64,000 bases of DNA, from assembly GCF_041886205.1 (NCBI RefSeq), contig NZ_CP169029.1, one strand, 5' to 3'. A model generated the notes under the pieces. The model had not been told where the DNA came from, did no database searches, and saw nothing but the letters and a program-made list of their open reading frames with translations. Position numbers and translations under genes: made by a program. Source of the stretch: Escherichia coli. Its GTDB lineage: Bacteria > Pseudomonadota > Gammaproteobacteria > Enterobacterales > Enterobacteriaceae. Below are positions 10,183-62,625 of the stretch, in pieces (position 1 is the first letter of the stretch; the number at the start of each line of letters is the position of its first letter).

Positions 10183-10638
10183 ATGCAAGAAGGGCAAAAC
10201 CGTAAAACATCGTCCCTGAGTATTCTCGCCATCGCTGGGGTGGAACCATATCAGGAGAAGCCGGGCGAAGAGTATATGAATGAAGCCCAGCTGGCGCACT
10301 TCCGTCGTATTCTGGAAGCATGGCGTAATCAACTCAGGGATGAAGTCGATCGCACCGTTACACATATGCAGGATGAAGCAGCCAACTTCCCGGACCCGGT
10401 AGACCGTGCAGCCCAGGAAGAAGAGTTCAGCCTCGAACTGCGTAACCGCGATCGCGAGCGTAAGCTGATCAAAAAGATCGAGAAGACGCTGAAAAAAGTG
10501 GAAGACGAAGATTTCGGCTACTGCGAATCCTGCGGTGTTGAAATTGGTATTCGCCGTCTGGAAGCGCGCCCGACAGCCGATCTGTGCATCGACTGCAAAA
10601 CGCTGGCTGAAATTCGCGAAAAACAGATGGCTGGCTAA
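10183..10638 (+). CDS. dksA: RNA polymerase-binding transcription factor DksA
   Basis: ORF 10165..10638; start at ATG 10183 ([11 protein letters not shown]); C4 zinc finger [25 protein letters not shown]; 151 aa. Confidence 0.96.
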
Positions 10639-10704: not shown

Positions 10705-11601
10705 ATGACAGACACACACTATATTGGCCGCTTCGCCCCCTCTCCTTCCGGCGAGCTTCATTTTGGTTCTCTGATTGCTGCGCTTGGCAGCTATTTGCAG
10801 GCTCGCGCCCGGCAAGGTCGCTGGCTGGTACGCATAGAAGATATCGACCCGCCTCGTGAAGTTCCCGGTGCCGCAGAAACTATCCTGCGCCAGCTGGAAC
10901 ATTACGGCCTGCACTGGGACGGCGATGTTCTCTGGCAATCGCAACGTCACCACGCCTATCGCGAAGCACTCGCCTGGTTACATGAGCAAGGACTAAGTTA
11001 TTACTGCACCTGCACGCGTGCGCGTATTCAAAGCATTGGTGGTATTTACGACGGTCATTGCCGGGAATTGCATCATGGACCAGATAACGCCGCAGTGCGT
11101 ATCCGCCAGCAGCATCCGGTCACCCAGTTTACTGACCAGCTGCGCGGCATTATTCACGCCGAAGAAAAACTGGCGAGGGAAGATTTTATTATTCATCGCC
11201 GTGATGGTTTGTTTGCCTATAACCTGGCGGTGGTGGTGGATGATCACTTCCAGGGCGTGAGCGAAATTGTCCGCGGGGCAGATTTGATCGAACCGACAGT
11301 GCGGCAAATCTCGCTGTACCAGCTTTTTGGCTGGCAAGTGCCAGATTACATTCATCTGCCGCTGGCGCTTAATCCACAAGGCGCTAAACTTTCCAAGCAG
11401 AATCATGCGCCTGCGTTGCCGAAAGGCGATCCACGCCCGGTACTAATCGCGGCACTTCAATTTCTGGGGCAGCAGGCAGAAGCACACTGGCAGGATTTCA
11501 GCGTCGAGCAAATCCTTCAGTCAGCCGTCAAAAACTGGACGCTGACCGCCGTGCCTGAGTCGGCAATTGTAAATTCAACATTCTCAAATGCGTCATGCTG
11601 A
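10705..11601 (+). CDS. gluQ: Glutamyl-Q tRNA(Asp) synthetase (truncated GluRS paralog lacking anticodon-binding domain)
   Basis: ORF 10675..11601; start refined to ATG 10705 ([22 protein letters not shown], class I HxGx-type motif); 298 aa. Confidence 0.92.
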
Positions 11602-11660
11602 GCTATGATTAGCCGCTATTTTTTTGTCCTGAATGATGTTTGACACTACCGAGGTGTACT

Positions 11661-13058
11661 ATTTTTACCCGAGTCGCTAATTTTTGCCGCAAGGTGCTAA
11701 GCCGCGAGGAAAGCGAGGCTGAACAGGCAGTCGCCCGTCCACAGGTGACGGTGATCCCGCGTGAGCAGCATGCTATTTCCCGCAAAGATATCAGTGAAAA
11801 TGCCCTGAAGGTAATGTACAGGCTCAATAAAGCGGGATACGAAGCCTGGCTGGTTGGCGGCGGCGTGCGCGACCTGTTACTTGGCAAAAAGCCGAAAGAT
11901 TTTGACGTAACCACTAACGCCACGCCTGAGCAGGTGCGCAAACTGTTCCGTAACTGCCGCCTGGTGGGTCGCCGTTTCCGTCTGGCTCATGTGATGTTTG
12001 GCCCGGAGATTATCGAAGTTGCAACCTTCCGTGGACACCACGAAGGTAACGTCAGCGACCGCACGACCTCCCAACGCGGGCAAAACGGCATGTTGCTGCG
12101 CGACAACATTTTCGGCTCCATCGAAGAAGACGCCCAGCGCCGCGATTTCACTATCAACAGCCTGTATTACAGCGTAGCGGATTTTACCGTCCGTGATTAC
12201 GTTGGCGGCATGAAGGATCTGAAGGACGGCGTTATCCGTCTGATTGGTAACCCGGAAACGCGCTACCGTGAAGATCCGGTACGTATGCTGCGCGCGGTAC
12301 GTTTTGCCGCCAAATTGGGTATGCGCATCAGCCCGGAAACCGCAGAACCGATCCCTCGCCTCGCTACCCTGCTGAACGATATCCCACCGGCACGCCTGTT
12401 TGAAGAATCGCTTAAACTGCTACAAGCGGGCTACGGTTACGAAACCTATAAGCTGTTGTGTGAATATCATCTGTTCCAGCCGCTGTTCCCGACCATTACC
12501 CGCTACTTCACGGAAAATGGCGACAGCCCGATGGAGCGGATCATTGAACAGGTGCTGAAGAATACCGATACGCGTATCCATAACGATATGCGCGTGAACC
12601 CGGCGTTCCTGTTTGCCGCCATGTTCTGGTACCCACTGCTGGAGACGGCACAGAAGATCGCCCAGGAAAGCGGCCTGACCTATCACGACGCTTTCGCGCT
12701 GGCGATGAACGACGTGCTGGACGAAGCCTGCCGTTCACTGGCAATCCCGAAACGTCTAACGACGTTAACCCGCGATATCTGGCAGTTGCAGTTGCGTATG
12801 TCCCGTCGTCAGGGTAAACGCGCATGGAAACTACTGGAGCATCCTAAGTTCCGTGCGGCTTATGACCTGTTGGCCTTGCGAGCTGAAGTTGAACGTAACG
12901 CTGAACTACAGCGTCTGGTGAAATGGTGGGGTGAGTTCCAGGTTTCCGCGCCACCAGATCAAAAAGGGATGCTTAACGAGTTGGATGAAGAGCCGTCACC
13001 GCGTCGCCGTACTCGTCGTCCACGCAAACGCGCACCGCGTCGTGAGGGTACCGCATGA
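11661..13058 (+). CDS. pcnB: Poly(A) polymerase I
   Basis: ORF 11640..13058; recalled N-terminus [13 protein letters not shown] aligns to an ATT codon at 11661-11663 (non-canonical start); 465 aa; basic C-terminus. Confidence 0.93.
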
Positions 13059-13534
13059 CAGTGGCGTATATTGCCATAGGCAGCAATCAGGCCTCTCCGC
13101 TGGAGCAGGTCAATGCTGCCCTGAAAGCATTAGGCGATATCCCTGAAAGCCACATTCTTGCCGTTTCTTCGTTTTACCGCACCCCACCGCTGGGGCCGCA
13201 AGATCAACCCGATTACTTAAACGCAGCCGTGGCGCTTGAAACTTCGCTCGCCCCGGAAGAGTTACTCAATCACACACAGCGTATTGAATTGCAGCAAGGT
13301 CGCGTCCGTAAAGCTGAACGCTGGGGACCGCGCACGCTGGATCTTGACATCATGCTGTTTGGTAATGAAGTGATAAATACCGAACGTCTGACCGTTCCGC
13401 ACTACGATATGAAAAATCGTGGCTTTATGTTATGGCCGCTGTTTGAGATTGCACCGGAGCTGGTTTTTCCTGATGGGGAGACGTTGGCGACAAGGCTCAC
13501 CAATTTGAACGCCTTATGCCCACAACGCTGGTGA
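13055..13534 (+). CDS. folK: 2-amino-4-hydroxy-6-hydroxymethyldihydropteridine pyrophosphokinase (HPPK)
   Basis: 159-aa ORF; ATG overlaps pcnB stop (ATGA at 13055-13058). Confidence 0.95.
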
Positions 13535-13938: not shown

Positions 13939-14511
13939 ATGTTAAAGAAAAGCGCTATTGCTGCGGCATTAGTTATGTTTACCAGTTCGGCCTTCGCGCT
14001 GGATGGCGGCCAACTGGATTTCGCAGGTTTGGTAAGTGACAACACGTGTATCCTGCACGTCAACGGTGGTGCACAGGATGGACAAATTAACCTGGAAACC
14101 GCAACAACGGCTGAAGTTACAGGTGCTGGCGTAGTCAATGCAGCCAATGTCGGCGCGAAAGCTGAACCGTTCTCTATTACAGTGGATTGCTCAGCAAACA
14201 CGCCTGCCGCCGCTGAAGCCAATCTGAATATGAGCTCAGTTTTCTTCAGTAACAGCCAGGGCACCCTGAATAACGATATGTCCGTAAGCCAGGCGGCAAG
14301 CGGCGTCGCTATTGCCGTTCACTATGTACCAAGCGCCGGCACTTTCGAGCAGGTCAAAATCAATGACAGCACCGATATTAAAAACCTCACGTTAACCAAC
14401 GGTAAAGGGACCTGGAACTTCCAGGCATCTTACGTTAAGCAGGCAGCGTCGATTCCTGTCGTTGCCGGGTTTGTGAAAACCAACGCGGCTTATACGATCA
14501 CTTACCCGTAA
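13939..14511 (+). CDS. yadN: Fimbrial major subunit (chaperone-usher family)
   Basis: 190-aa ORF with signal peptide and C-terminal beta-strand TITYP; first gene of fimbrial operon. Confidence 0.8.
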   Translation: MLKKSAIAAALVMFTSSAFALDGGQLDFAGLVSDNTCILHVNGGAQDGQINLETATTAEVTGAGVVNAANVGAKAEPFSITVDCSANTPAAAEANLNMSSVFFSNSQGTLNNDMSVSQAASGVAIAVHYVPSAGTFEQVKINDSTDIKNLTLTNGKGTWNFQASYVKQAASIPVVAGFVKTNAAYTITYP

Positions 14512-14573
14512 TTCAGATACAGACCAGGCAGTCGATGTCGGGCTGCCTGTATGACTTTAATAAGGACATCATT

Positions 14574-15317
14574 ATGACCAGGACGCGTCAGTTACTCCTT
14601 GCTTCACTTTTCACCTGCGCAGGTGCATTAGCCAGCTTTTCTGCCTGTGCCGATATTGTGCTTTCCGGCACGCGTATTATTTACAACGCAAACCAGAAAG
14701 AAGTCTCCCTGCGTATGGAAAACAAAGGCAGCCGCCCGCTGCTGGTACAAACCTGGATCGATACCGGGAGTGAAAACGCGGATCCCAGCACCATCACCGT
14801 GCCTTTTACCGTCACGCCACCGGTCTCTCGTGTGGACGGTAAACGTGGGCAGACGGTGAAAATCGCCTGGAATACCAGCCAAACGTTGCCCGCCGATCGC
14901 GAAAGTGTTTTCTGGTTCAATGCGCTGGAAGTCCCCCCCAAAATGAGCGAGACCGAGGCTCAGGGGAAAAATATCCTGCAACTGGCGTTCCGCACCCGCA
15001 TCAAGCTGTTTTATCGCCCGGCTAACCTGGTCGGCAGCGCCCCGGACGCCCCCAAACAACTGACCTGGCATCTGCAATCCTCTGGCGGGAAAGTTGTGCT
15101 TCAGGCCACTAACCCAACGCCATTTCACGTCTCTTTCAGCAGCATTAGCCTGATTTCGGGCGGAAAAAAATACGCCGTCGACGCCACGATGGTCTCCCCA
15201 AAAAGCAGCGCTGACATGACAGTGAAAGGTCTGAGCACTGCATCTGCTGGTGCAACGATTGAATATACCGCCATTAATGACTTCGGCGGTGCCATTGAAG
15301 GCAAAGTGAAGCTTTGA
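14574..15317 (+). CDS. yadV: Periplasmic fimbrial chaperone (PapD-like)
   Basis: ORF 14535..15317; start placed at ATG 14574 after AAGGA (MTRTRQLLLASLF... signal peptide); chaperone motifs LLVQTWID, FWFNALEVPP. Confidence 0.82.
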   Translation: MTRTRQLLLASLFTCAGALASFSACADIVLSGTRIIYNANQKEVSLRMENKGSRPLLVQTWIDTGSENADPSTITVPFTVTPPVSRVDGKRGQTVKIAWNTSQTLPADRESVFWFNALEVPPKMSETEAQGKNILQLAFRTRIKLFYRPANLVGSAPDAPKQLTWHLQSSGGKVVLQATNPTPFHVSFSSISLISGGKKYAVDATMVSPKSSADMTVKGLSTASAGATIEYTAINDFGGAIEGKVKL

Positions 15318-15347
15318 CGCACTGACTAACTACGCAGGGATTGCACA

Positions 15348-17969
15348 ATGACGACGCCTTTCAACGGCACAAAATTTCCCCTCTCTCCACTCGCTTGTCT
15401 GGTGGCGTTCAGTCTGCTGCCCTGCGCCTACAGCGCCATGGCGGCAGAGGAAGCTGTTGAATTTGATAACACCTTCCTGATGGGGGCCGGTGCCAAAAAT
15501 ATCGACGTCAATCGCTACAGTGATGGCAACCCCGCATTGCCAGGCCGTCACGACGTAAGCGTGTTTATCAACAATAAGCCGATCAGCAATCTGTCCATGG
15601 AGTTTATTGAAATAGCGAATAGCCGTAGCGCCAAACCCTGTATCTCTGCCAGCACCCTGCTCCAGCTGCATATTCGCCTGCCGGATAATCTCGACGATAC
15701 GGCGATTTTGCAAAAGCGCGACAGTACCGCGCAGGACTGTCTTAATCTTGAGGTCGCCATTCCCCAGTCCAGCCTCACCTATAACAGTAACGATCAGCGG
15801 ATGGACATTAATGTGCCTCAGCTGTGGTTACAAAAAACTTACGCTAACTATGTGGATCCTTCCCTGTGGGACGAAGGGATCAACGCAGCCATGTTTTCTT
15901 ACACGCTGAATGGCTGGCGCAGTGAATCGCCCGATCAAACCGCAGAGAGTACCTATGCCGGGCTGATGGGCGGCTTTAATTTATGGGGATGGCATTTCCG
16001 TTCGCACGGCAACTATTCATGGGACAAAGAGAGTGGCGGCAGTTTCGAGTTCCAGGACAAGTACCTGCAACGTGATATCACCAGGCTGCGGTCACAACTG
16101 GTTGTCGGTGAAACCAACACTACGGGGGAAACCTTTGATTCCGTTCGTATTCGCGGTGTTCGTCTCTACAGCGAAAGCCGCATGCTGCCACCGACGCTCG
16201 CCTCTTACGCGCCGGTGATCCGTGGGGTCGCGAACTCCAACGCCAAAGTAACAATTACCCAGAACGGCTACAAGATTTACGAAACGACGGTGCCGCCAGG
16301 CCCCTTTGCTATCGATGATTTGTCGCCAGCCGGATTTGGTGCCGATCTCGAAGTCACGGTCACCGAGTCTGACGGCTCACAGCGAACATTCACTCAGGCC
16401 TATTCGTCGGTGATCCAGATGATGCGCCCCGGCGTGGGCAAATGGGACATCAGCGCGGGTGAAATCAAAAAAGATGAGCTGAAGGACAAGCCCAATCTGA
16501 TACAGGGAACGTACTACTACGGGTTAAGTAATACGTTTACCGGCTATACCGGCCTGCAAATGACCGATAACGGCTACTGGGCCGGATTGTTAGGCCTTGG
16601 GATGAACACCTCATTGGGGGCATTTTCTCTTGATGTGACGCAGTCGCACACCGAAATCCCCAACGACAAAACCTATGAGGGCCAGAGCTACCGTATTTCG
16701 TGGAACAAATATTTTGCACCGACCGAAACGTCACTCAACATTGCGGCCTATCGCTACTCGACAAAAAACTATCTCGGTTTGAACGACGCCCTGACGCTGA
16801 TCAACGCTGCTAACCATCCTTATGATGAAGGTTACAAGGGAATCGTCTCCTATGGGCGTATGAAAAACCAGTTCAGCGTCAGCCTCAACCAGACGTTAAA
16901 AAATAGCGAGCGGGATTATGGTTCCTTCTACTTGAACGGGACATGGACGGACTACTGGGCCACTAATGAATCACAGAGTAGTTTTGCGTTTGGTTACAGC
17001 AGCGGCTTTGACTGGGCCAGCTACAGCGTCAGCCTGCAACGTACCTATGACGAAGACAATAACAAAGATGACTCTATCTATCTCAGCCTGACCATTCCGC
17101 TGGACAAACTGTTCGGCAGCGATAGCCGCGAAGGTGGCTTTAGGACACTGAATACCAGCGTCAACAGCGATATGAAGGGCAGTTCGCAATACAACGCTAA
17201 TGCCACCGGCTACAGCCAGGACAACCGCTGGAACTACAGCGTCAACACCTCCTATAACGCATTGAAAGAGACGGAAAGCCTGAAAACCATCAGTGGTTTC
17301 ACCAGCTATGAGTCACCCTGGGACACCCTTTCCGGTTCCGTCTCCGCCAGTAGCGACCACAGTCGTCAGTATGGCGTGAGTACCGATGGCGGCTTTGTGT
17401 TACATCGCCACGGGCTTACGTTCAGTAACGACAGCTTTACCGATTCAGACACGCTGGCGCTGGTCAACGCCCCCGGCGCGAAAGGTGCGCAAATTAACTT
17501 TGGCAGCAGTACCGTGGACCGATTTGGCTACGGGGTAACCAGTGCGCTTTCTCCGTATCATGAAAACACCGTCGCCCTCAACGTGGACAACCTGGATGAA
17601 GATGTGGAACTGAAAAGCACCAGCACCGTCGCGATCCCGCGCCAGGGTGCGATTATCTTCAGCCATTTCGACACCGACACCGGGCGTTCAGCCATTCTTA
17701 ACCTGCTGCGCAGTGATAAGCAGCCCGTACCGTTTGCTTCCGATGTGACAGACAGCAGCGGGCAGTCCATCGGCACAGTTGGGCAAGGGAGCCAGGCTTT
17801 CGTTCGCGGCATTGCCGACGAAGGGGAGCTGGTGGTTTCCTGGTATGAAAAAAATAGCCAGAAACAGTGCCGCATTCACTACCAGATACCGCCCTCTCCC
17901 ACCATGACGGGCAAAACTATCGTATTAAACGCCGTGCCCTGCACCCTGCAATCACAGGAGAGGAAATGA
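15348..17969 (+). CDS. htrE: Fimbrial outer-membrane usher
   Basis: 873-aa ORF with signal peptide; position between chaperone and minor subunits. Confidence 0.88.
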   Translation: MTTPFNGTKFPLSPLACLVAFSLLPCAYSAMAAEEAVEFDNTFLMGAGAKNIDVNRYSDGNPALPGRHDVSVFINNKPISNLSMEFIEIANSRSAKPCISASTLLQLHIRLPDNLDDTAILQKRDSTAQDCLNLEVAIPQSSLTYNSNDQRMDINVPQLWLQKTYANYVDPSLWDEGINAAMFSYTLNGWRSESPDQTAESTYAGLMGGFNLWGWHFRSHGNYSWDKESGGSFEFQDKYLQRDITRLRSQLVVGETNTTGETFDSVRIRGVRLYSESRMLPPTLASYAPVIRGVANSNAKVTITQNGYKIYETTVPPGPFAIDDLSPAGFGADLEVTVTESDGSQRTFTQAYSSVIQMMRPGVGKWDISAGEIKKDELKDKPNLIQGTYYYGLSNTFTGYTGLQMTDNGYWAGLLGLGMNTSLGAFSLDVTQSHTEIPNDKTYEGQSYRISWNKYFAPTETSLNIAAYRYSTKNYLGLNDALTLINAANHPYDEGYKGIVSYGRMKNQFSVSLNQTLKNSERDYGSFYLNGTWTDYWATNESQSSFAFGYSSGFDWASYSVSLQRTYDEDNNKDDSIYLSLTIPLDKLFGSDSREGGFRTLNTSVNSDMKGSSQYNANATGYSQDNRWNYSVNTSYNALKETESLKTISGFTSYESPWDTLSGSVSASSDHSRQYGVSTDGGFVLHRHGLTFSNDSFTDSDTLALVNAPGAKGAQINFGSSTVDRFGYGVTSALSPYHENTVALNVDNLDEDVELKSTSTVAIPRQGAIIFSHFDTDTGRSAILNLLRSDKQPVPFASDVTDSSGQSIGTVGQGSQAFVRGIADEGELVVSWYEKNSQKQCRIHYQIPPSPTMTGKTIVLNAVPCTLQSQERK

Positions 17970-18538
17970 GATTCTTTTTACGGTTAACACTGTTATTAAC
18001 GACGCTGTTCAATGCATCGTGGGCATTGGCTGTCGAAATTTCGGTTAATTTTACCGCGACAATCAAAGAGACCACCTGCGCCATGACGGTGAGCGCGCTC
18101 AATGGCGCGAATATTAGCGGTGACTCGGCGTCAGAAAACTACTTTCTGGATATACCCGCAATGGGGGTTTCTGATATCACCAATAAAACGTCCAAAACCG
18201 AAGCCAGCTTTAAGTTGTTGCCGATTAACTGTAATAACTACATCTCCAGCATGTCGATGACCATTGGCGGTAAACACAGCGATTATACCGACACGCTGCT
18301 GGTGAATGAATCCTCGGTAACAGGCGGCGCAAATTATATTGGCGTGGGCTTTAAACGACTCAATGACGATGACAGCCTGCGGTTTAAGGTGGATGGAACA
18401 ACGTCAATTAACTGGACACGAAATGATATTGCCAATGGATTTGATATTACAGGGATAGTTCGCCAGACAACCTCATCTCATACCATGGAACCAGGTACAG
18501 TTCAGACAAAAGCGATATTCGTTTTTACTTATAACTAA
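17966..18538 (+). CDS. yadM: Fimbrial minor subunit
   Basis: ORF 17867..18538; start refined to ATG 17966 overlapping htrE stop (ATGA); signal peptide MRFFLRLTLLLTTLFNASWA. Confidence 0.75.
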   Translation: MRFFLRLTLLLTTLFNASWALAVEISVNFTATIKETTCAMTVSALNGANISGDSASENYFLDIPAMGVSDITNKTSKTEASFKLLPINCNNYISSMSMTIGGKHSDYTDTLLVNESSVTGGANYIGVGFKRLNDDDSLRFKVDGTTSINWTRNDIANGFDITGIVRQTTSSHTMEPGTVQTKAIFVFTYN

Positions 18539-18550
18539 CAGGGATGGTGT

Positions 18551-19147
18551 ATGAATTATCAACGCATAATTGTGGCGCTACTGTTGATCATCGGAATAAA
18601 TACGCAAAGTCTGGCCGGTTCCAGTACGTTGAACGTGACGGTGAGGACAACCGTTACCGCCAGTACCTGCACAGCAGAACTTCACAATGCGCAAGACCTG
18701 CAAGCAACAACGATTGATATTGGTGATGTCTATCTGAACGAACTTGCAAATAAGACTAAATATCAGAATTTCAGCCTGGTATTTTCAAATTGTGAAGGAT
18801 TAGCCAAAGATCAGGCGACCGTCACACTTTCGCCGCAAACAGGCTGCGATGGTGCTTCCAGTACGGGTGGCGGATTTCGCAACGCACTGGCCTCCAGCAA
18901 CAATGATGCCGCAACCGGCGTATCGATTGAAGTATGGACGACCAATCAGCCGGAAGGTCAGGGAAGTGTGCAGCTAAACTGCAAAACAAAACCGACCAGT
19001 ATTGTTGATCTGACGGGCGCGTCAGGTGTGAACGTTGTCCACTGGTGGTTAAGCTCCAGAATTGTCGTCGCCGCGGATAACACTATCGCCGATGTACGCG
19101 CGGGACAGTTCTCCACTAATGCTGTCTTTTCAGTAACCTATGAGTAA
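18551..19147 (+). CDS. yadL: Fimbrial minor subunit
   Basis: 198-aa ORF with signal peptide and pilin-like C-terminus. Confidence 0.78.
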   Translation: MNYQRIIVALLLIIGINTQSLAGSSTLNVTVRTTVTASTCTAELHNAQDLQATTIDIGDVYLNELANKTKYQNFSLVFSNCEGLAKDQATVTLSPQTGCDGASSTGGGFRNALASSNNDAATGVSIEVWTTNQPEGQGSVQLNCKTKPTSIVDLTGASGVNVVHWWLSSRIVVAADNTIADVRAGQFSTNAVFSVTYE

Positions 19148-19153
19148 ACGACG

Positions 19154-19726
19154 ATGAAATCACGCTTTCGACTGTTCGTTTCCAGCTTAGGGTTTATTTC
19201 AGCGGTCTGTATTGCCAACACCAATATTAATATGACCGCCAACGTTGTCAGCACCAGTTGCAAAGTCACGCTCGACAATAGCGGCAGCATTGATTTGGGC
19301 ACCGTAGATTACAACTATCTGAACACAAATACTGCTGTCGATCGCGTTTATACCGGTGGCCAGGCGTTCTACATTACTGTCAGCGACTGCGCGCAGGTTG
19401 CAGGGAAAAATCCTTCCCGTCTTACGGTGAGTTTTACGCCCGTCGGGGGCACCCTCGGCGCAACCAATCAACAGGTTTTCGCCAATCAGGCTGCCGATGG
19501 CGCTAAAAATGTCGGCATCGTAATTTTATCCACCCAGGATGCGCAAAGTATTTTCAATGTGCTGGACACCCACGGCCAACCGCAAAGTATTTATCCCGTG
19601 AGCGCGGATCAGTTAGTCAATGCTACTTACCATTTTTATGCACGGATGCAGAAGATCGACCTGACGCAAGCCGCGACCGGTGGTGTCGTGCGGGCCAGTG
19701 TGTTTGTCGGTGTTTATTATGAATAA
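19154..19726 (+). CDS. yadK: Fimbrial minor subunit
   Basis: 190-aa ORF with signal peptide and pilin-like C-terminus (VFVGVYYE). Confidence 0.78.
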   Translation: MKSRFRLFVSSLGFISAVCIANTNINMTANVVSTSCKVTLDNSGSIDLGTVDYNYLNTNTAVDRVYTGGQAFYITVSDCAQVAGKNPSRLTVSFTPVGGTLGATNQQVFANQAADGAKNVGIVILSTQDAQSIFNVLDTHGQPQSIYPVSADQLVNATYHFYARMQKIDLTQAATGGVVRASVFVGVYYE

Positions 19727-19752
19727 TCTTATTCGTTCTCAAGGATGATGAA

Positions 19753-20973
19753 ATGAACCGTTTTCTGTTACCTAAATGGGCCAAAATTTTACTGCTTTTA
19801 TTGCCCTTATATTCTGGTTACTTGCAAGCCGCAAATACATTGATCGTTGGCAGTAAAACAACCTCTGACGGTAGTGGTATCAATAAAAACAGAGGCCCGG
19901 CCGGCGACGGTTATTCCACAACCACCTTCACCACCGGTAACAGTCAGATTGTTATCGGCCGCGCCACTACGCTGCAATACAGTAATATCAAAATCCAGCT
20001 ACAGGCCGATACCGCAGGCAATGGTAACACGGGGGTCATTTACTGTGCACCAGGGGGGATGGGCGGACCCATTTCACTGGAAAGTCATTTTGTCGCAAGC
20101 CCCTACGTCTATAATAATCACAAGCTTTTCAAAACCAACATGCCAGGGCTGTATTTTACCATGCGCATGTATAATTTATGGTCCTATGCTCTGACGTCAT
20201 CAGAAGACTTTTATATCGGCGATACCAATCCATACTCTTTGAATCTACACTCAACGATATGCGCGAAATCTCTCGGTTGGTACCAGACCCTTGGTGGGTT
20301 AGTTGCTAGTATCGACATTGATTTTTATAACGACGCCACATTTGACCCCAACGCCAGCGGCAGTGTTGCTCTACTGAGTGATACCACCTATCACTACTCG
20401 TTGAAAAACCAGTCTCCCGGGGGGAATCTCGTTACCAAAACTATTTATCAGACCTTCAATATGGGGAATGTCACATTAACCTCTCCAACCTGTTCGTCGG
20501 CGATACTCTCCGGCAGCAGCGTCAGTAAGGGCGACACGGTAGGATTGGGCGAATACAGTTCGAAAGAGGTTATCGACGGCCTGAACGGCGTGCCTTTTTC
20601 AATTGTGCTGAAAGGGTGTTATCGGGTAACCAATATTGATGTCAAACTGACTACTGGGGCGCCTGCGGTATCGACGTCGCTATTGGGCAACTCGCTGACA
20701 ACCAATGCTGCCAGCGGCGTAGGCGTAGAAATTAAAGGCGAGTCCAACTCGCATTATCCTGAAGTGGTGCTCAAGCCAAACGACGCTTCCTCAATCTATA
20801 AAGCATATGGCGATAACCCGGAAACCTCAAACGGTATTATTGGCAGCAATGCTTCGGGTTCGCCTGCCGACCAGACGCTGAATTTTACCGCGACGCTCAA
20901 GCAGGATGGTAATCAGCAAATCCGGGGCGGAGATTTCAAAGCGACGGGAGTCTTCTCCATCACCTACCCCTGA
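19753..20973 (+). CDS. yadC: Fimbrial tip adhesin-like subunit
   Basis: 406-aa ORF with signal peptide, two-domain size typical of tip adhesins, pilin C-terminus GVFSITYP. Confidence 0.8.
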   Translation: MNRFLLPKWAKILLLLLPLYSGYLQAANTLIVGSKTTSDGSGINKNRGPAGDGYSTTTFTTGNSQIVIGRATTLQYSNIKIQLQADTAGNGNTGVIYCAPGGMGGPISLESHFVASPYVYNNHKLFKTNMPGLYFTMRMYNLWSYALTSSEDFYIGDTNPYSLNLHSTICAKSLGWYQTLGGLVASIDIDFYNDATFDPNASGSVALLSDTTYHYSLKNQSPGGNLVTKTIYQTFNMGNVTLTSPTCSSAILSGSSVSKGDTVGLGEYSSKEVIDGLNGVPFSIVLKGCYRVTNIDVKLTTGAPAVSTSLLGNSLTTNAASGVGVEIKGESNSHYPEVVLKPNDASSIYKAYGDNPETSNGIIGSNASGSPADQTLNFTATLKQDGNQQIRGGDFKATGVFSITYP

Positions 20974-47887: not shown

Positions 47888-48047
47888 GGGTTATTCCTTA
47901 TCTATCTAATAACGTTGAGTTTTCTGGAACCTGTCCCATTGAACTCTCGCCGGAAAGCTCAATAAGACAGGTTCTACGTTTAGTTGCCGCGCTTTTATAT
48001 GCGCTTGATTTACAACATCTTCTGGATAATTTTTACCAGAAAAATCA

Positions 48048-59261: not shown

Positions 59262-59470
<209 letters not shown>

Positions 59471-59476
<6 letters not shown>

Positions 59477-59860: not shown

Positions 59861-59879
59861 TGTCTTAAACCTATAAAAA

Positions 59880-59899
59880 AGGCGCAGAATCCTGCGCCT
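59880..59899 (-). terminator. Hairpin (aggcgcag/ctgcgcct) with T-run on minus strand between secA and mutT; putative partial terminator/attenuator
   Basis: 8-bp stem, 4-nt loop; AAAAAA on plus strand at 59875-59880. Confidence 0.55.
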
Positions 59900-59919
59900 T
59901 TTACTTCAACTGTTAGCTT

Positions 59920-62625
59920 TTATTGCAGGCGACCATGGCACTGCTTGTATTTTTTACCAGAACCGCACGGGCAAGGATCGTTACGTCCTACTTTGCGTTC
60001 ACCGGTTTGCGCCGCCAGTGCAGCTGCGGCTGCAGAGTCGTCATCCTGATGGCTAAGCTGCTGCATTTGCGCTAAACGCTCGGCTTCTATACGACGCTGT
60101 TGTTCCAGCTCCTCAACCTCTTCAGGCATACGTACCTGAACTTTGCTCAGCGTACTGATAACTTCATATTTCAACGACTCCAGCATCGCTGCAAACATGG
60201 AGAACGATTCACGTTTGTATTCCTGCTTCGGATCTTTCTGTGCGTAGCCACGCAGGTGGATACCCTGACGCAGATAGTCCATCGCTGCCAGGTGCTCTTT
60301 CCACAGGGAGTCAAGCGTTTGCAGCATGACGCCTTTCTCGAAGTGACGCATCATCTCAGCACCAACCACTTCTTCTTTACGCTGATACACTTCGATGGAC
60401 TGCGCCAGAATGCGCTCACGCAGCGTCTCTTCATGCAGTTCTGGTTCTTTATCCAGCCACTCAGCAATTGGTAAATCGAGGTCGAAATCGTTCTTCAGAC
60501 GTTCCTGCAGCCCCGGAATATCCCACATTTCTTCCAGCGACTGTGGCGGAATGTAGGCATCAATGGTCGCTTTGAACACATCTTCACGAATGCTGTTAAT
60601 GGTTTCGCTCACATCACTGACATCCAGCAGTTCGTTACGCTGGGAGTAAATGGCGCGACGCTGATCGTTAGCCACGTCATCATATTCCAGCAGTTGCTTA
60701 CGAATGTCGAAGTTACGGCTTTCAACTTTACGCTGGGCGTTGGCAATCGCTTTGGTCACCCACGGGTGTTCAATGGCTTCGCCTGGCTTCATACCCAGTT
60801 TACGCATCATGCCGGATACTCGGTCGGAAGCAAAAATACGCATCAGCGCATCTTCCATCGACAGGTAGAAACGGGAAGAACCAGCATCCCCCTGACGACC
60901 AGAACGACCGCGCAACTGGTTATCGATACGACGGGATTCGTGACGCTCGGTACCGATGATATGCAGGCCACCTGCTGCCAGTACCGCATCGTGACGTACC
61001 TGCCAGTCGGCTTTAATTTTTTCAATTTGCTCTGCGGTCGGATTTTCCAGCGCGGCAACTTCTGCCTGCCAGCTACCACCGAGCACAATATCTGTACCAC
61101 GACCCGCCATGTTGGTCGCGATAGTCACCGCAGCCGGATAACCTGCCTGAGCAACAATCGCCGCTTCGTTGGCGTGGAATTTGGCGTTCAGGACGTTGTG
61201 CTTAATACCGGCTTTGGTCAGTTCGTTTGATACCAGCTCCGATTTTTCGATGGAGATAGTACCCACCAGCACCGGTTGGCCTTTCGCAGTACGTTCTTTG
61301 ATATCTTCAATGATCGCCTGAATTTTTTCCGCTTCAGTCATGTAGACCAGGTCCGGCAGATCTTTACGAATCATTGGACGGTTGGTCGGAACAACGACGG
61401 TATCCAGCTTGTAGATGGAGCTGAATTCGAAAGCTTCGGTATCAGCAGTACCGGTCATCCCCGCCAGTTTTTCATACAGACGGAAGTAGTTCTGGAAGGT
61501 GATCGAAGCCAGCGTTTGGTTTTCGTTCTGGATCTGCACACCTTCTTTCGCTTCCACAGCCTGGTGAAGACCATCGGACCAGCGACGGCCCTGCATGGTA
61601 CGACCGGTGTGTTCGTCAACGATGATAACTTCACCATCTTTAACGATGTAGTCGACGTCACGGGTAAACAGCGCATGAGCGCGCAGCGCCGCCGTTACGT
61701 GGTGCATCAGCATGATGTTGGCCGGAGAGTACAGAGACTCCCCTTCATCCATGATGCCTTCTTTCACCAGCAGTTCTTCAATCAGCACCAGACCACGTTC
61801 GGTCAGGTTCACCTGGCGAGATTTTTCGTCCACCGAGAAGTGGCCTTCGCCCTGGAAGGTTTCGGAGTCTTCTTTTTCCTGACGGATCAGGTGCGGAATA
61901 ATTTTATTCACGCGTTTATACATTTCCGAGCTGTCTTCTGCCGGGCCAGAAATGATCAGCGGTGTACGCGCTTCATCGATCAGGATGGAGTCCACTTCGT
62001 CCACCAGCGCATAGTGCAGTTTACGCTGTACACGTTCTTCAGGACTGAACGCCATGTTGTCGCGCAGGTAGTCAAAGCCGTATTCGTTGTTCGTACCGTA
62101 AGTGATGTCAGCTGCGTAAGCTTCACGCTTCGCTGGTGCTGGCATACCCGGCAGGTTGATACCGACAGTCAGGCCAAGGAATTCAAACAGCGGACGGTTG
62201 TTTTCGGCGTCACGTTGCGCCAGGTAGTCGTTCACGGTAACTACGTGCACGCCTTTACCGGTTAGTGCGTTCAGGTAAGCAGGCAGCGTTGCGGTCAGGG
62301 TTTTACCTTCACCGGTACGCATTTCGGCGATGCAGCGTTCGTTAAGAACCATACCGCCGAGTAACTGAACGTCGAAGTGACGCATACCAAAGACGCGCTT
62401 ACTTGCCTCACGCACCACGGCGAAAGCTTCCGGGATCAGATTTTCCAGCACTTCGCCTTTTTCCAGACGTGCACGAAACTCTGCGGTTTTACCTTTCAGT
62501 TCTTCGTCGGAGAGTTTTTCCATCTCCGGTTCCATGGCATTGATGATGTTGACCACTTTGCGCATCCGGCGCAGGGTGCGATCGTTACGACTACCGAAAA
62601 CTTTAGTTAATAATTTGATTAGCAT
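59920..62625 (-). CDS. secA: Preprotein translocase ATPase SecA
   Basis: 901-aa [26 protein letters not shown]...; C-terminal zinc-binding [14 protein letters not shown]. Confidence 0.97.

Follow-up and report, generated by a model that had tools for sequence, protein, structure and literature searches.

The pcnB locus and its product

The DNA analyzed here, referred to as the window, is a stretch of 64,000 nucleotides from Escherichia coli and represents an ordinary segment of the E. coli chromosome, in which the genes follow the order dksA-gluQRS-pcnB-folK (Table 1). Of 5426 complete E. coli genomes, 5424 match a 1.7-kb stretch of it. Collinearity of the window with strain LHM10-1 extends from fhuD to aroP, and the pcnB coding sequence (CDS) annotated by RefSeq in that strain corresponds to the ATT-initiated interval listed in Table 1. 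The order gluQRS-pcnB-folK is also retained at two more distant loci (L083 and L087).

Table 1. Coordinates of genes and sequence elements in the pcnB region of the window.
Feature	Coordinates	Strand	Basis
dksA	10183-10638		RefSeq, mapped from LHM10-1
gluQRS	10705-11601		RefSeq, mapped from LHM10-1
Sigma-70-like promoter TTCTCA-17-TATGAT, overlapping the end of gluQRS	11581-11609	+	Consensus scan
Upstream in-frame TTG (start of the mechanical ORF; not the functional start)	11640-11642	+	No Shine-Dalgarno sequence; TTG in 26 of 80 species
Shine-Dalgarno sequence GAGGTG for the ATT	11651-11656	+	80 of 80 species, fixed spacing, anti-Shine-Dalgarno duplex of -7.2 kcal/mol
ATT (AUU) initiation codon	11661-11663	+	Sequence, 83 of 83 sequences, E. 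coli genomes, literature
pcnB CDS (poly(A) polymerase I, 465 amino acids plus stop), ATT start	11661-13058	+	RefSeq/PGAP coordinates, NF008634, identity with K-12
Codons 2-13, invariant N-terminal peptide	11664-11699	+	Amino acids in 80 of 80 species
In-frame GTG, codon 12 (start of older annotation and ab initio callers; 454 amino acids)	11694-11696	+	33 of 120 clusters; no Shine-Dalgarno sequence
ATGA overlap, folK start on pcnB stop	13055-13058	+	ORF list, RefSeq
folK	13055-13534		RefSeq, mapped from LHM10-1

The product of pcnB is poly(A) polymerase I (PAP I). The RefSeq/PGAP entry WP_010723084.1 comprises 465 residues and begins with MFTRVANF. The PcnB protein of the window shows no amino-acid difference from that of K-12, and the two genes are distinguished by 13 synonymous nucleotide differences. 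We therefore find no substantial difference from the K-12 gene (b0143; Binns and Masters, 2002, Mol Microbiol 44:1287), with which the window shares the ATT, the Shine-Dalgarno sequence and the neighbors dksA-gluQRS-pcnB-folK. The protein scores 997.1 bits against the NCBIfam PcnB equivalog model NF008634 (cut-off 702), with residues 1-464 aligned to positions 1-468 of the 469 in the profile, and 523 bits against TIGR01942 (cut-off 305.65). Precomputed Pfam assignments on identical or near-identical database proteins give PF01743, PF12627 and PF12626, corresponding to the head, RNA-binding and arginine-rich C-terminal regions. Residues 28-442 are identical to the solved PAP I structures 3AQK-3AQN. 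These structures begin at residue 28 or 29, leaving residues 1-27 (11661-11741) without structural information.

Several minor features of the surrounding sequence may be recorded here. The ATG of folK overlaps the TGA of pcnB, a layout typical of translational coupling, and folK starts across species with either ATG (38) or GTG (30). The fimbrial operon located 3' of folK (13939-20973) resembles that of LHM10-1 and not that of K-12; its first gene measures 573 nt in the window vs. 585 nt for yadN of K-12. Rfam matches reaching the gathering threshold comprise the tp2 sRNA between aceE and pdhR on the opposite strand (47890-48003, + strand), STnc40 (59875-59944, - strand) and two copies of naRNA4 (59278-59355 and 59395-59471, - strand).

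The AUU start codon and its ribosome-binding site

From position 11640 onward the frame reads TTG ACA CTA CCG AGG TGT ACT ATT TTT ACC CGA GTC GCT AAT TTT TGC CGC AAG GTG CTA, and within 11400-11900 the sequence 5' of the TTG is CCTGAATGATGT. The program-made list of open reading frames opens this frame at the TTG (11640-13058, 472 amino acids). An in-frame TGA at 11634-11636, two codons before the TTG, closes the frame, leaving the TTG as the sole canonical start in this frame ahead of the ATT. An earlier sequence-only reading had placed the start of pcnB at the ATT, 21 nt downstream of the TTG, from the PcnB N-terminus. This assignment is borne out, as the ATT lies in frame with the TTG and the codons that follow it match that N-terminus. 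The same reading had regarded the TTG as the only canonical in-frame alternative, which holds upstream of the ATT and fails downstream, where GTG occurs at 11694 (codon 12), 11745 and 11751 and ATG at 11814 (codon 52).

The sequence-only reading had asked for a Shine-Dalgarno sequence at the proper distance from 11661, and one is present. The GAGGTG motif is separated from the ATT by 4 nt, or by 6 nt when the spacing is counted from GAGG. Its predicted duplex with the 3' end of 16S rRNA (-7.2 kcal/mol) is stronger than the background of the window (mean -2.2 kcal/mol, 5th percentile -6.4 kcal/mol). The corresponding values are +0.4 kcal/mol for the TTG at 11640 and +0.5 kcal/mol for the GTG at 11694, neither of which has a Shine-Dalgarno sequence. 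Among these three candidate starts, the ATT is the only one provided with a ribosome-binding site. Papers citing Binns and Masters (2002) term the pcnB ribosome-binding site "poor" (PMC3561954; PMC9764084); contrary to this label, GAGGUG at its spacing looks good by sequence.

We compared the region across the Enterobacteriaceae, taking one genome per species, which yielded 80 loci. The ATT is kept at the start position in all 80 species (83 of 83 sequences), and GAGGTG is invariant at a fixed spacing in every one of them, being the only invariant stretch upstream of the ATT. Upstream, the frame breaks down immediately: codon -1 specifies five different amino acids, and codons -4 to -10 show free variation with frequent stops, which are found at codons -5 to -10. 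Downstream, the amino acids encoded by codons 1-13 are unchanged in all 80 species, and where nucleotides differ within codons 2-13, at seven sites, the change is always synonymous. The substitution pattern thereby switches sharply from non-coding to coding exactly at the ATT, a signal well outside what chance would produce. Such a boundary is the prediction for the true start codon and excludes the 472-residue reading.

The conservation extends to the genomes of E. coli themselves. A 61-mer spanning 11632-11692 is identical in 5416 of 5424 genomes, and an ATG version of the pcnB start was found in none of the 5424. In H45, one of the eight genomes whose 61-mer differs, the annotated CDS start is unchanged. 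When metagenomes were scanned for this flank with ATG, ATA or ATC in place of the ATT, a single contig was found among the matches listed, and it carries ATC. On this contig (SMLE01000210.1; L090, positions 966-992) ATC replaces ATT, GAGGTG is kept and codon 12 is GTA.

Within codons 2-9, the sequence is frozen at the nucleotide level (see below), and conservation among Enterobacteriaceae is therefore by itself no proof of translation. The case for codons 2-13 being translated is built on the purely synonymous nature of the variable sites, on conservation at the protein level in distant relatives and on published experiments. Three such relatives with 62-67% identical PcnB proteins (L083, L084 and L086) show GAGGTG, a spacing of 4 nt, ATT and then a related FTRV-type peptide, which is encoded by different nucleotides while the frame and the hydrophobic/basic pattern are kept. 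Still more distant homologs have an ATG or GTG start before a similar basic N-terminal peptide, as in L088, where an ATG precedes the basic peptide MLIIKKLFKKIF, and in L089, where the start is GTG; the N-terminal alignments of these two loci and of L087 are uncertain. A further locus, L087, has a PcnB with 54% identity in the order gluQRS-pcnB-folK-panB, and at about 905-1000 it encodes the related peptide I-R-R-V-I-E-L-C-K-K-V-I upstream of the called ATG. This peptide lies in an open frame only five codons past a stop, which suggests that translation may start there from ATC or CTG.

The pcnB gene hence presents several features of the AUU-start class to which infC also belongs, namely an in-frame AUU before a conserved peptide with no usable canonical start upstream, a Shine-Dalgarno sequence at a functional distance and an AUN codon retained at the start. 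From the sequence and its conservation, we conclude that PAP I is almost certainly translated from the AUU at 11661, placed by the GAGGUG Shine-Dalgarno sequence. The AUU start of pcnB is already known, having been published in 2002, and it is in the reference annotation. AUU initiation was shown by Binns and Masters (2002), as cited in PMC2939334, PMC3561954, 10.1101/063800, PMC4245954 and PMC5499595; according to what PMC2939334, PMC3561954 and PMC4447247 relate of that work, the N-terminus was that expected from the AUU, and changing AUU to AUG raised expression. Together with infC, pcnB is described as one of only two genes of E. coli with a confirmed AUU start in 10.1101/063800, PMC4245954, PMC5499595 and PMC4447247. 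Phylogenetic evidence mentioned in PMC3561954, PMC2939334 and PMC9764084 suggests AUU starts in many Proteobacteria.

Competing starts and database annotation

Three other starts can be considered for pcnB. The one that survives best retains the AUU protein as the main product and adds a shorter isoform initiated at the ATG at 11814 (codon 52), with mRNA supplied by the sigma-S promoter pS1. According to PMC2939334, pS1 is active in vitro, and in vivo under special conditions, and two bands detected by anti-PAP I Western blotting were reported along with a Shine-Dalgarno-like sequence before this ATG. The authors of the same article, who suggested the isoform, termed it unproven. Only 2 nt separate the Shine-Dalgarno-like AAGG from the ATG. 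Among 79 Enterobacteriaceae species, 71% have leucine (CTC, CTT or CTG) at codon 52, and any short isoform would therefore be confined to Escherichia and its close relatives. We consider this two-product scheme improbable. As a separate observation, the ATG at 11814-11816 was once proposed as the start of pcnB, and it is not a conserved start site.

According to the second proposal, translation begins at the GTG of codon 12, giving a protein of 454 amino acids, and the preceding 33 conserved nucleotides constitute a regulatory element of the 5' UTR. Most ab initio callers choose this codon, it is invariant in all 80 species, and codons 2-9 show the nucleotide-level conservation expected of a non-coding element. 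The evidence presented above is nevertheless difficult to reconcile with it: the GTG lacks a Shine-Dalgarno sequence, all seven variable sites in codons 2-13 are synonymous, distant homologs preserve the frame and the hydrophobic/basic pattern with other nucleotides, and L088 bears a similar basic peptide behind a canonical ATG. Moreover, codon 12 is not GTG in L090 (GTA) or in L084 (GTC), and the published evidence (PMC2939334; PMC3561954) favors the AUU. The GTG start is therefore very unlikely to be the start of PcnB, although a minor second product from either this GTG or the ATG of codon 52 may accompany the AUU protein.

The least credible proposal, to which we assign next to no probability, takes the TTG at 11640 as the start of a 472-residue protein with the ATT as an internal isoleucine codon; it can invoke the absence of any earlier canonical start in the open frame and the annotation of a corresponding 7-residue extension in 13 of 120 database clusters, and it is contradicted by the lack of a Shine-Dalgarno sequence, by the free variation of codons -1 and -4 to -10 around an invariant GAGGTG, by the occurrence of TTG at -21 in only 26 of the 80 species (TTG or ATG in 28), by 43 species that offer no canonical start in this frame anywhere from the closest upstream stop to the ATT, by an in-frame stop at -15 in three species, and by the published placement of the start at the AUU (PMC2939334; PMC3561954).

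We tallied the start positions in the 120 closest protein clusters of a large database. The ATT start (465 amino acids in E. coli) was used by 51 clusters. The GTG of codon 12 was taken as the start in 33 clusters, whose proteins of about 454 residues begin with MLSRE or MLTRE, and 20 further clusters start still further downstream and give shorter products. Upstream extensions were found in the remaining 16, of which 13 are the 7-residue TTG-type, including many NCBI entries of Salmonella and Kosakonia. The expectation of the sequence-only reading that ORF callers would mis-start this gene was thus correct for 69 of the 120 clusters; the usual error is truncation to the GTG of codon 12, not extension to the TTG. 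The modern PGAP start for pcnB is correct.

The practical value of the present analysis lies in this caution for annotation. The AUU start of pcnB itself is a textbook exception, and we add nothing new to it. The N-terminus is wrong in more than half of the closest clusters, mostly by truncation of at least 11 residues, and what the truncated entries lose is a 12-residue peptide, invariant in the family and missing from the solved structures.

Control of PAP I synthesis and constraint on the initiation region

According to the literature, the AUU start keeps PAP I scarce. The AUU start and the ribosome-binding site are reported to hold down PAP I synthesis (PMC3561954), the enzyme being present at about 30-50 molecules per cell, and an excess of PAP I is lethal through polyadenylation of mature tRNAs (PMC3561954). 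Near-cognate codons including AUU supported roughly 1-2% of AUG initiation in reporters (10.1101/063800), and IF3 discriminates against the AUU of infC (PMC9410913). The AUU start put forward in the sequence-only reading agrees with the RefSeq CDS start, with the alignment of NF008634 from residue 1, with the literature and with our comparison, and its limiting effect on PAP I agrees with the literature.

As for the mRNA, the promoter listed in Table 1 is the only promoter-like site on the + strand within 11000-11900, and both of its hexamer regions are at least 90% conserved over the 80 species. A promoter of pcnB termed pB has been described in PMC2939334, and the site at 11581-11609 is probably this pB. 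On this basis, the following scheme can be proposed. The pcnB mRNA is probably made mainly from the promoter at 11581-11609, and ribosomes guided by the GAGGUG Shine-Dalgarno sequence begin its translation 4-6 nt further on, at the AUU at 11661. As a near-cognate codon presumably disfavored by IF3, AUU would initiate with only a few per cent of the efficiency of AUG. The dependence of the pcnB start on IF3 is presumed here by analogy with infC. The start codon would act as a built-in throttle that limits each cell to a few tens of PAP I molecules, surplus enzyme being lethal through the polyadenylation of mature tRNAs. No ATG replaces the ATT in any of the 5424 E. coli genomes or the 80 species, as would be expected from the toxicity reported for surplus PAP I. 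Judging from this conservation, the putative ATT throttle is under very strong purifying selection.

Two known systems resemble this arrangement. As in pcnB, a conserved near-cognate AUN start (AUU, AUC or AUA) restrains translation of infC, which encodes IF3, and the ATC of the one natural pcnB variant (L090) has its counterpart in some infC genes (PMC5499595). However, the product of infC itself senses the codon in an autoregulatory loop, whereas PAP I is no initiation factor and the pcnB codon would be a fixed throttle. In Enterococcus faecalis, a rare ATT start likewise attenuates expression of ebpA, which was mis-annotated at a downstream ATG (PMC4447247). The ebpA gene is, however, unrelated to pcnB, encodes a pilus tip protein and comes from an unrelated organism.

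A further observation on the initiation region concerns its synonymous sites. Over the 80 species, the synonymous sites of codons 2-9 (11664-11687) are almost invariant, with the rare codon CGA present in 80 of 80. The codon entropy of codons 2-12 is 0.18 bits vs. a gene mean of 0.95, the lowest of any 11-codon window in pcnB. A generic effect of the 5' end on synonymous sites was considered as an explanation and rejected, because the control genes gluQRS and folK of these loci lack a comparable dip (1.11 vs. 1.17 bits for gluQRS, 1.14 vs. 1.17 bits for folK), although dksA has one. In dksA, codons 2-12 (10186-10218) have an entropy of 0.01 bits vs. a gene mean of 0.57 over 61 species, the lowest window of that gene, which suggests a nucleotide-level constraint on the initiation region of dksA as well.

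We also considered a hairpin sequestering the Shine-Dalgarno sequence, in which GAGGUG would pair with UACCCG of codons 2-4 and the AUU would lie in a 9-nt loop. This candidate was rejected as unsupported, its predicted stability being only -4.7 kcal/mol and no better than that of shuffled sequences (z = -0.49), and the pairing being absent from the more distant L083 and L086. Over the 105-nt leader region, predicted structure is weaker than in shuffled sequences (z = +1.12). Rfam families gave no match over 11450-11900 even at E <= 1, and a consensus scan for a promoter-like site overlapping codons 2-9, following the idea of pS1, found none.

The simplest guess for the frozen codons is a sequence-context constraint on the initiation region that works together with the weak start codon. 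More specifically, the frozen codons 2-9 and the invariant Shine-Dalgarno sequence might reflect an undescribed cis-acting requirement, either an initiation context that accepts AUU or a site bound by some regulator acting on the translation of PAP I. We hold this proposal to be rather doubtful; if true, it would go beyond the explanation by a weak start codon. A second, smaller island of synonymous constraint occurs within pcnB at codons 41-46 (11781-11798), where CGC AAA GAT is invariant in 79 of 79 sequences. The ATG at 11814 follows shortly after this island, which may be related to the published internal sigma-S promoter pS1.
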